1,196 nucleotides of DNA from Naegleria gruberi (taxonomy: Eukaryota). Of this stretch, positions 1 to 1,196 are shown piece after piece. The stretch is from assembly GCA_000004985.1 (NCBI GenBank), contig GG739507.1. One strand, written 5' to 3'. The notes beneath the pieces were generated by a model. The model was given only the letters and a program-made list of their open reading frames with translations, did not search any database and was not told the DNA's origin. Made by a program: the position numbers and the translations under genes. Each line of letters opens with the position of its first letter. Positions within the stretch are counted from its first letter, which is position 1.

Positions 1-1196
1 AATAATATAAAATCATCATCATTATCATTGAATAAATTTACATCTTCAATAATATCATCATTTAATAAAAATAAATCCTATCGGAATGTAACAATAATAA
101 TAATAATATCATTTATAATATTCATTTCAATATTATTATTATTATTTTCATCATCATCTAATAATACAACTACTACAACTACTCTAAATAATAATAATAT
201 AAATAATTTAAATAATTTAAATAATAATATAAATAATAATATAAATATAAATTTAAATAATAATATAGAATTTATAAATAAACAAAAAAAAGAAATTAAA
301 TGTAATTTACAATTTTTAATAGTATCATCACCTAGAAATGTATTAAAAAAATATTCATTATCACCATTTCATTATTTAAATCAAACAGTAGAAGGTATAT
401 TAAATTTAGAAAATGATTTTTTTAAACCATGTATTACTATATTAAGTGTTAAAGGATATAAATATGGTATTGAAATTTATAATTTATTAAAAAATTATTA
501 TAATTTAAATAATATACAAATTATAAATAATTTAAATAATTTAAATAATTTAAAATTTTCAAGTTTATTATTAGATTTTAAAAAAAAACAACATTTAAAT
601 GATTTTTATTCTTTATTTAATCAAATTAAAAATTATTTTTTAAATGAAAATATAATGATAATGGAAGATGATTTTTTAATGTGTGAAAATTCAGTTTATC
701 ATTTAATTTATACATTAATAGAAATGAATAAATATAAATGGAGTGGTGTTAGAGTTTCATTTGGATTAAATGGTATTATTTTAAATGGAAATGAATTAAT
801 TAATATTATTCAATTTTTAAAATTTCATATTGGTAGATCAACTCCAATAGATTGGTTATTAGAAGAATTTTGGAATGAATTTGATAAAATGGGTTTTAAT
901 TATTTTAATTATTTTAATTTAAATAATAATTTAAATAATTTAAAAAATAATAATTTAAATTTAAATTTAAATAATAATTTTAATAATAATAATTTAAATA
1001 TATTAGAATATAAAAAATTTAAAACATATAGATTTCAATTAATGAAACATATAGGTGTAATATCATCAGTTGGTAATGAAAGAACACATGAAACTAATGA
1101 TTTATATTTTCCACATTGTTATGAAACTTTACATGATGCTAAATTAATGTTTAATTTTGATGTTAATTCTTGTTCTCATTCTTTATTTTATCCATG
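1..1196 (+). CDS. Internal fragment (5' and 3' partial) of a putative type II membrane (Golgi-type) glycosyltransferase. It has a DxD-like motif, is Asn-rich and uses Dictyostelid-style codons. Frame 1, no stop codon in the window.
   Basis: Translating frame 1 (codons at 1, 4, 7 ...) gives no stop in 398 codons; the last 2 nt are a partial codon. This is highly non-random at this A+T content, where TAA/TAG/TGA are frequent in the other five frames. The translation reads ...NKSYRNVTIIIIISFIIFISILLLLFSSSSNNTTTTTT...CNLQFLIVSSPRNVLKKYSLSPFHYLNQTVEGILNLENDFFKPCITILSVKGYKYGIEIY...DFYSLFNQIKNYFLNENIMIMEDDFLMCENSVYHLIYTLIEMNKYKWSGVRVSFGLNGIILNGNELINIIQFLKFHIGRSTPIDWLLEEFWNEFDKMGF...KTYRFQLMKHIGVISSVGNERTHETNDLYFPHCYETLHDAKLMFNFDVNSCSHSLFYP. 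The first in-frame Met codon is at 655-657, which is implausibly late, so the start is upstream of the window. Confidence 0.85.
88..147 (+). other. Signal-anchor / transmembrane helix of the encoded protein (VTIIIIISFIIFISILLLLF).
   Basis: Twenty consecutive residues are hydrophobic (Ile/Leu/Phe/Val) with at most two Ser/Thr. On the N-side are the basic residues K-N-K-S-Y-R (nt 67-84), which suggests an N-in cytoplasmic tail. A Ser/Thr-rich stretch follows. This is the classic type II Golgi glycosyltransferase topology. Confidence 0.7.
148..267 (+). repeat. In-frame low-complexity Ser/Thr/Asn 'stem' region (SSSSNNTTTTTTLNNNNINNLNNLNNNINNNININLNNN). It includes a tandem (aataattta)x2 at about 202-219 and an (act/aca)6 Thr run at 166-183.
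   Basis: Codon-level repeats of aat, tta, ata and act/aca, read directly from the sequence in frame 1. Confidence 0.8.
502..552 (+). repeat. In-frame Asn/Leu/Ile low-complexity insertion (NLNNIQIINNLNNLNNL). It contains a perfect 3-unit tandem repeat of the 9-mer aataattta at 526-552.
   Basis: aataattta aataattta aataattta is read directly at 526-552. It is in phase with frame 1 and encodes Asn-Asn-Leu three times. Confidence 0.85.
664..672 (+). other. Candidate DxD-type (E-D-D) divalent-cation / nucleotide-sugar binding motif of a GT-A fold glycosyltransferase.
   Basis: The codons gaa gat gat fall within the hydrophobic context I-M-I-M-E-D-D-F-L-M. In GT-A enzymes, acidic pairs flanked by hydrophobic beta-strand residues are the canonical metal-binding motif. 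The functional assignment is inference. Confidence 0.45.
895..1005 (+). repeat. In-frame Phe/Asn/Tyr then Asn/Leu low-complexity insertion (FNYFNYFNLNNNLNNLKNNNLNLNLNNNFNNNNLNIL). It contains (ttttaatta)x2 plus one imperfect unit at 895-921 and (aataattta)x2 at 925-942.
   Basis: Repeats read directly from the sequence. The insertion lies between conserved-looking blocks (...TPIDWLLEEFWNEFDKMG and KTYRFQLMKHIGVISS...), so it probably loops out of the catalytic domain. Confidence 0.8.

Follow-up and report, generated by a model that had tools for sequence, protein, structure and literature searches.

We analyzed a stretch of 1,196 nucleotides of DNA (called the window throughout) that is occupied from end to end by a single open reading frame (ORF). 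The 398 residues that it encodes are a fragment of a protein, and the ORF runs past both ends of the window. By sequence comparison the fragment is a predicted Golgi-type glycosyltransferase of the GT-A fold and of the MGAT clade. Several statements are made jointly here, and we consider it quite likely that they all hold together: the window is an internal piece of a protein-coding gene of the nucleus, the eukaryote that carries the gene is extremely AT-rich and is a heterolobosean amoeba, and the gene product is a type II membrane protein with an MGAT4-like GT-A domain. The features of the window are listed below, with residues numbered from the first codon of the window; conservation at or above 90% was counted over 100 relatives.

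1 to 1196, + strand: partial coding sequence, 398 codons plus the TG of the next codon; open at both ends, with 0 stops, and homologous to the Naegleria-type proteins P0001, P0002, and P0003 over residues 98-398.
1 to 87, + strand: predicted cytoplasmic N-terminal tail, residues 1-29; no in-frame Met; K4, K12, K23, K25, and R28 precede the anchor.
88 to 147, + strand: predicted single transmembrane signal-anchor, residues 30-49, VTIIIIISFIIFISILLLLF; the Kyte-Doolittle peak is 3.33.
148 to 285, + strand: predicted stem, read from the translation; a Ser/Thr stretch (residues 50-61) and then Asn-rich low-complexity sequence (residues 62-95), with tandem repeats (periods 9, 12, and 33); the Naegleria homologues lack it.
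289 to 1194, + strand: predicted catalytic domain of GT-A fold, MGAT4 (GT54)-like, residues 97-398.
325 to 336, + strand: putative counterpart of GT54 motif 1 (GxPxxKR), S-S-P-R, residues 109-112, where strand beta1 ends; the close homologues all have P111 and R112.
493 to 555, + strand: Asn-rich insertion 2, in frame, residues 165-185, in a predicted surface loop; period-9/18/27 repeats; predicted local distance difference test score (pLDDT) down to 68; variable in homologues; no internal GT...AG pair.
574 to 603, + strand: D-F-K-K-K-Q-H-L-N-D, residues 192-201, putatively corresponding to the last part of GT54 motif 2 (…WR) plus TKQNLD; aligns to MGAT4A WRTKQNLD.
664 to 672, + strand: DxD motif E222-D223-D224, predicted to bind Mn2+ and the diphosphate of a uridine diphosphate (UDP)-sugar; at least 90% conserved; aligns to the EDD of MGAT4A LEDDI.
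757 to 774, + strand: predicted G-loop S-F-G-L-N-G, residues 253-258, counterpart of GT54 motif 4 (GFIGK); aligns to MGAT4A LGFIG.
844 to 852, + strand: xED-type motif P-I-D, residues 282-284, with D284 as predicted catalytic base; P282 and D284 are at least 90% conserved; aligns to MGAT4A PIDWLLD.
910 to 1008, + strand: Asn-rich insertion 3, in frame, residues 304-336, in a predicted surface loop; absent from all three Naegleria-type homologues; pLDDT 52-69; period-12/24 repeats; the sole G is at 1006 and there is no GT.
1045 to 1056, + strand: K-H-I-G, residues 349-352, putative counterpart of GT54 motif 5 (HVGxH), with H350 as predicted C-His metal ligand; aligns to MGAT4A QHVGLHSS.

Frame +1 contained no stop in 398 codons, and the other five frames contained 63, 77, 21, 32, and 73 stops. 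In 2000 dinucleotide-preserving shuffles of the window, frame 1 carried 40 stops on average and always at least 21, no open run was longer than 94 codons, and the analytic probability of 398 open codons arising by chance was ∼5e-21. A chance ORF in low-complexity DNA is ruled out by these shuffle statistics together with the homology described below. The G+C content of the window was 14.2% and fell to 3.5% at third codon positions (GC3). Only 14 of the 398 codons ended in G or C, 10 of them being the obligate ATG or TGG, and the two-fold codon families ended in A/T 209 times and in G/C once. The codons in use included AAT, TTA, CAA, GGT, AGA, TCA, and CCA. In the catalytic domain (302 codons) we counted zero synonymous G/C-ending codons, that is, a synonymous GC3 of 0. 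The four non-obligate G/C-ending codons all lay within the first 41 codons: TTG10, TCC26, CGG28, and TTC41 (window 28-30, 76-78, 82-84, and 121-123). No RNA genes were found on either strand of the window. A reading made earlier from the letters of the window (the sequence-only reading) had called a full-length stop-free frame, extreme A+T content, and a preference for AAT, TTA, CAA, GGT, and AGA; all of this was borne out by the counts.

We searched a large protein database by a word-indexed method. The full query gave three significant matches: P0001, which is C9374_007946 of Naegleria lovaniensis (E 2e-84), P0002, an ENA entry (3e-83) encoded on a 13.9-kb contig of 35% GC, and P0003 of Naegleria gruberi. 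The masked query gave one match and an 82-sequence alignment gave four. An exhaustive HMMER search with a four-sequence core profile reached much further and returned 558 relatives at E <= 1e-3, of which 247 scored at E <= 1e-10. We looked up the taxonomy of the 30 best representatives. Named among them were six N. gruberi paralogues, two proteins of Acrasis kona, and one of the haptophyte Phaeocystis, with no amoebozoan; P0003, from the database search, is the seventh N. gruberi relative. The Naegleria hypothetical proteins annotated as "GT18 domain-containing" (C9374_007946; NAEGRDRAFT_57357, 74048, 74047, 58235, 77773, and 78329) belong to the same family as the window. Both C9374_007946 and P0002 are colinear with the window, starting at the Cys that precedes FLI(V/M) and ending at the last …FxP. 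Over 235 core columns the window was 60–61% identical to these two proteins, which are 85% identical to one another. Compared with its Naegleria homologues, the window has three Asn-rich insertions, a GC content of 14% versus 35%, and a longer tail. A very low-GC bacterial endosymbiont is ruled out as the source, since the homologues are all eukaryotic, and the gene is an ordinary enzyme gene of eukaryotic DNA, not a prokaryotic or phage locus.

We then asked which glycosyltransferase family the domain resembles. The sequence-only reading had looked to a Pfam search of the 398-residue translation with hidden Markov models (HMMs) to name a glycosyltransferase family. This route failed: the translation gave noise only against Pfam, NCBIfam, and the sequences of PDB, as did the insert-free translation against Pfam, and a link to GT54 appears at the level of profiles. 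PF04666 (MGAT4_cons) was matched at E <= 0.01 by 53 of 100 relatives (best 2.9e-15), and no other catalytic glycosyltransferase family recurred. The consensus of the broad family matched PF04666 at E 3.2e-11 with 43.1 bits, over positions 12-271 of 280. A family profile of 82 sequences, headed by the masked window, was aligned by hhalign to residues 124-374 of human MGAT4A with a probability of 98.6% (E 1.1e-15, 233 columns); a four-sequence profile gave 84.8%. The MGAT4A sequence used was confirmed by Pfam as a bona fide GT54, at 445 bits for PF04666 and 168 bits for MGAT4A_C. Where they matched PF04666, the ten closest relatives scored 13.6–41.2 bits; ten more distant ones scored 18.9–50.5 bits. 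These comparisons indicate that the catalytic domain is homologous to bona fide MGAT4 and shares its EDD. Its sequence sets it at some distance from GT54, as a remote homologue or a sister family; by the curated gathering threshold of Pfam, 51.5 bits, it falls outside GT54 itself. The earlier guess of a GT54-like enzyme thus stood as to distant homology and fell short as to membership.

The animal GnT-IV (MGAT4) enzymes of GT54 (PF04666) resemble the predicted protein in type II topology and in their GT-A domain. They also share the order and register of the motifs: an IPTxxR-like motif, an aromatic and a basic residue followed by KQxLD, then EDD, the G-loop, PIDWLL(E/D), and HxG…SS. However, the identity of the window family to MGAT4A is only ∼16–23%, and the family stays below the PF04666 gathering score. 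MGAT4 is metazoan whereas the window family is non-metazoan, with an activity that is predicted from sequence. Also, animal MGAT4 carries a CBM94/MGAT4A_C lectin domain, whereas the homologues of the window carry a Cys-rich module like the C-terminus of GnT-V. The closest characterized family is GT54 and the closest actual relatives are uncharacterized Naegleria proteins.

The domain was modeled (residues 97-398, from a 100-sequence alignment) with a mean pLDDT of 90.3 and a predicted template modeling score (pTM) of 0.87; confidence was low only in the two Asn-rich inserts. On this model, residues 97-398 can confidently be assigned to the GT-A glycosyltransferase fold. The model shows a Rossmann-like fold with a G-loop and a C-His; its DxD stands at the end of a beta-strand, and its xED Asp where helix alphaF begins. 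Its best structural matches were GnT-I (GT13, 1FO9), POMGnT1 (GT13, 5GGF), and GnT-II (GT16, 5VCM), although identity to the window domain is only 10–12% and no Pfam or HMM sequence match links the window to GT13 or GT16. GT13 lacks the C-His (PMC7185993), whereas the window family conserves a His. With the single anchor described below, the model upheld the earlier view of a type II-like membrane glycosyltransferase.

GT54 has been defined by five motifs, GxPxxKR, FGDx6WR, EDD, GFIGKLF, and HVGxH, and EDD is its form of the DxD (PMC12616123). In the window, EDD lies within MEDDF (residues 221-225), at the end of model strand 121-126. The four other motifs are in register but degenerate: SSPR (IPTxxR in the family), D-F-K in place of …W-R, GLNGI, and HIGVI. 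SSPR is part of FLIVSSPRN (residues 105-113); the family consensus reads IPTxxR here and is aligned with GIPTVKR in MGAT4A. In the second motif region, K194-196, N200, and D201 are invariant among close homologues. In the G-loop, G255 is invariant and G258 is at least 90% conserved. D284 stands at the start of model helix 187-195 (alphaF), and the xED Asp of inverting GT-A enzymes sits at the start of alphaF and acts as catalytic base (PMC7185993). H350 and G352 are at least 90% conserved, and a metal-ligand role of the C-His in GT-A enzymes has been described (PMC7185993). The C-terminal region had been called a His-rich block; residues 350-393 do hold five His, but H350 is the only conserved one.

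These features suggest a mechanism. E222-D223-D224 and H350 would bind a divalent metal together with the diphosphate of a UDP-sugar, which is most probably UDP-N-acetylglucosamine (UDP-GlcNAc), and the G-loop (residues 253-258) would cover the donor. D284 may deprotonate the acceptor hydroxyl, leading to an inverting transfer with a beta-linkage, and the acceptor would probably be a mannose-containing glycan of the secretory pathway. We therefore propose, by analogy, a metal-dependent inverting UDP-sugar transferase. Transfer of UDP-GlcNAc onto a mannose-containing glycan would be the most likely reaction, as judged by analogy with GT54, GT13, and GT16.

Two other views of the protein bear on this proposal. 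Like mouse MGAT4E/F, the protein might have no catalytic activity and be a pseudo-enzyme, or it might use its GT-A scaffold to bind glycans. The partial retention of GT54 motifs 1, 2, 4, and 5 (SSPR, DFK, GLNGI, HIGVI) would fit such a loss of activity, but the window retains EDD, the glycines of the G-loop, the Asp of PID, and the C-terminal His, each conserved in at least 90% of the relatives, and the inactive mouse MGAT4E/F have lost their DxD, which reads EDN/GDN (PMC12616123). We thus find a dead enzyme improbable. The automatic names of the Naegleria homologues suggest instead a protein of the GT18 (GnT-V/MGAT5) type. Indeed, P0001-P0007 and others match PF15024 above its gathering score, and the family profile matches PDB chains of GnT-V at E 1.4e-9. 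Yet the PF15024 match is confined to profile positions ∼466-557 of 557, that is, to a Cys-rich C-terminal module of ∼90 residues. This module lies past the end of the window, and in the window itself PF15024 has no match. Moreover, the window domain is of the GT-A type, whereas GnT-V is GT-B (PMC7185993). For the domain in the window the GT18 reading is already refuted, and that the protein as a whole is of this type is extremely improbable. The names "Glycosyltransferase family 18 catalytic domain" given to the homologues are misleading, since only the non-catalytic C-terminal module matches GT18. An MGAT4-like GT-A transferase remains the preferred reading.

The Cys-rich module, beyond the 3' end of the window, spans residues 372-461 of P0001, 414-503 of P0002, and 355-451 of P0003, and it matches the C-terminal domain of GnT-V (5ZIB, 6YJQ; E 1.4e-9). 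The CBM94 domain (PF23524, MGAT4A_C) did not appear in this region, where the C-termini of the homologues match the PF15024 tail instead. By sequence, the MGAT4-like GT-A domain of the homologues is fused to a tail of the GnT-V type, where MGAT4 has its CBM94 lectin domain. A further architecture was seen in at least two family members, for example P0028 (Acrasis kona AKO1_014796, 512 residues), in which a class I chitinase (GH19, PF00182) is joined to an MGAT4-like domain, an unusual hydrolase-transferase pairing.

At the N-terminal side, residues 30-49 are the sole 19-residue stretch with a Kyte-Doolittle value >1.6. The anchor is followed by SSSSNNTTTTTT; no charged residue occurs until residue 93, and Lys and Arg are absent from residues 50-92. 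As judged by Kyte-Doolittle, the window has one N-terminal transmembrane segment, positive charges on its N-side, and a stem, which are the marks of a type II signal-anchor. The predicted anchor is of the positive-inside type, N-in/C-out, and lies too far from the N-terminus for a cleavable signal peptide. The N-terminus would be cytosolic; after one signal-anchor, a stem rich in Ser/Thr and Asn would lead to the GT-A domain in the lumen, in a protein that we infer to reside in the Golgi or elsewhere in the secretory pathway. The order of tail, transmembrane anchor, S/T stem, FLIVSSPRN, and EDD given by the sequence-only reading was recovered here (residues 30-49, 105-113, and 221-225 for anchor, FLIVSSPRN, and MEDDF).

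The window contains no in-frame Met before residue 219 and no stop codon. Tail residues 9-20 (SLNKFTSSIISS, window 25-60) align with residues 9-20 of P0002 (SSNKLRNSIIFS) at the same residue numbers. Because of this shared numbering, the true start codon probably lies just upstream of the window, only a few codons from base 1. At the other end, the last two bases are TG. The homologues have a Cys after the aligned final Pro (…SPCD / …FPCN), and the terminal TG is compatible with a TGT codon. About 100–160 codons downstream are absent from the window.

Asn accounts for 81 of the 398 residues. The earlier description of in-frame poly-Asn runs held for the richness in Asn but not for the runs: instead of long Asn homopolymers, the stretches consist of N-N-L / N-N-I repeats, encoded by microsatellite-like DNA of period 9/12. 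Three such stretches, at nucleotides 184-285, 493-555, and 910-1008, are built on a unit of approximately AATAATTTAAAT, which encodes N-N-L-N, and contain 0–1 G each. They are located in the stem and in two low-pLDDT loops, and they are missing or variable in the Naegleria homologues. No GT dinucleotide occurs within the three stretches, and for this reason they are not GT-AG introns. The only frame-keeping pair, GT(893)…AG(1006), was rejected as an intron: it would remove the conserved GFNYF (GMNYF in the homologues). The window is colinear with P0002, which is itself encoded by one uninterrupted, intronless ORF. With no in-frame stops, no GT in the inserts, and this colinearity, the window is the uninterrupted eukaryotic coding stretch that it had been taken for. 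The three stretches are probably microsatellites that expanded in frame by slippage, at sites (the stem and two loops on the surface) where the protein tolerates them. In-frame slippage expansions at the protein surface are typical of very AT-rich eukaryotic genomes.

From which organism does the gene come? Extreme A+T content, the AAT/TTA/CAA/GGT/AGA/TCA/CCA codons, and Asn-rich inserts resemble Dictyostelium genes, and the sequence-only reading had called the window Dictyostelid-like. A dictyostelid gene would be an attractive candidate because no Dictyostelium gene has yet been assigned to either of two beta1,4-GlcNAc transferases, the "intersecting" and the "lower-arm" one, and the lower-arm linkage is that of GnT-IV (PMC11795075). 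The phylogeny speaks against this. In a bootstrapped neighbor-joining tree of the 235 core columns, the window grouped with P0001 and P0002 at 100%, and this trio fell inside a clade at 94% whose remaining members were all N. gruberi paralogues. The window is thus nested in the Naegleria paralogue radiation, and no amoebozoan was named among the 30 relatives. The protein database, which draws on NCBI and UniRef and presumably includes annotated dictyostelid proteomes, yielded no identical or near-identical protein. The 209:1 bias toward A/T-ending codons in two-fold families is stronger than in typical D. discoideum genes. A published survey reported no MGAT4-related sequence in Amoebozoa (PMC12616123). 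Nor is AT-richness diagnostic: the genome of Willaertia magna, of the sister genus of Naegleria, has 24.8% GC, compared with 22% for D. discoideum (PMC6892926), and W. magna has a low GC3 (PMC11702301). Because W. magna is similarly AT-rich, composition cannot separate a heterolobosean from a dictyostelid gene. A dictyostelid origin is therefore unlikely, and since the gene does not look dictyostelid, its link to the dictyostelid beta1,4-GlcNAc transferases is unsupported.

A viral origin is less likely still. The gene could have been acquired from a heterolobosean host by a giant virus, or be an endogenous viral element of an amoeba, and a match to R655 was noted; however, this match reflects ordinary GT-A fold similarity. 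No relative and no exact match was found among 2.9 million IMG/VR contigs. Searches with exact 34-mers of the window also came up empty in prokaryotic-genome and metagenome collections. The predicted type II anchor, the Ser/Thr stem, and the microsatellite Asn-rich inserts also argue against a virus, as these are typical of cellular AT-rich eukaryotic genes. We regard a viral gene as very unlikely. Our scan of metagenome loci returned relatives at 27–29% identity only. Two of its loci, L003 (JAESGV010000097.1, a 159.9-kb contig, positions 8001-8519) and L005 (JAESGV010002829.1), come from one whole-genome shotgun project and are distant relatives at 28–29% identity. Given the tree, the gene most likely comes from a heterolobosean amoeba of the Naegleria/Willaertia lineage.

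Several points weigh against our interpretation of the gene as a heterolobosean, MGAT4-like transferase. The window sequence has no significant match to PF04666 or another glycosyltransferase family, even when freed of its inserts, so that its link to GT54 exists at the profile level only; none of 20 individually scanned relatives reached the PF04666 gathering score, the best standing at 50.5 bits. The proposed donor and acceptor are carried over from enzymes that are only distantly related. The tree was computed from distances, and the gene may have been transferred horizontally. That no near-identical protein was found in the protein database is a weak negative, because the word-indexed search was swamped. 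Finally, the synonymous GC3 of ∼0 in the catalytic domain lies beyond the genome averages of W. magna and D. discoideum, and no well-known AT-rich eukaryote is known to have so extreme a value in its average gene.

GT54 was proposed in 2025 to be a metazoan novelty, with no MGAT4-related gene in Amoebozoa (PMC12616123). Our search of the literature found nothing useful tying Naegleria to GT54 or to N-glycan GlcNAc transferases. We suggest tentatively, as a possibility that could well prove wrong, that the window and its 558 relatives (from Heterolobosea, a haptophyte, and environmental eukaryotes) form an ancient non-metazoan sister family of GT54, in which an MGAT4-like catalytic domain would be joined to a C-terminal module of the GnT-V type.

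If this is true, the catalytic scaffold of GnT-IV would be older than animals and not, as proposed, a metazoan novelty, and some free-living amoebae would add beta-GlcNAc (or other sugar) branches to mannose-rich glycans by a route that has not been described. The protist family described here is sizeable and homologous to GT54 at the profile level, and it qualifies the published Metazoa-only view of GT54 (PMC12616123). The window also illustrates that AT-richness and Asn-rich inserts are not diagnostic of Dictyostelium; here the phylogeny of the gene overrides its composition and points to Heterolobosea. The family provides candidate enzymes of glycan branching in Naegleria-type amoebae, to which the pathogen N. 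fowleri belongs.

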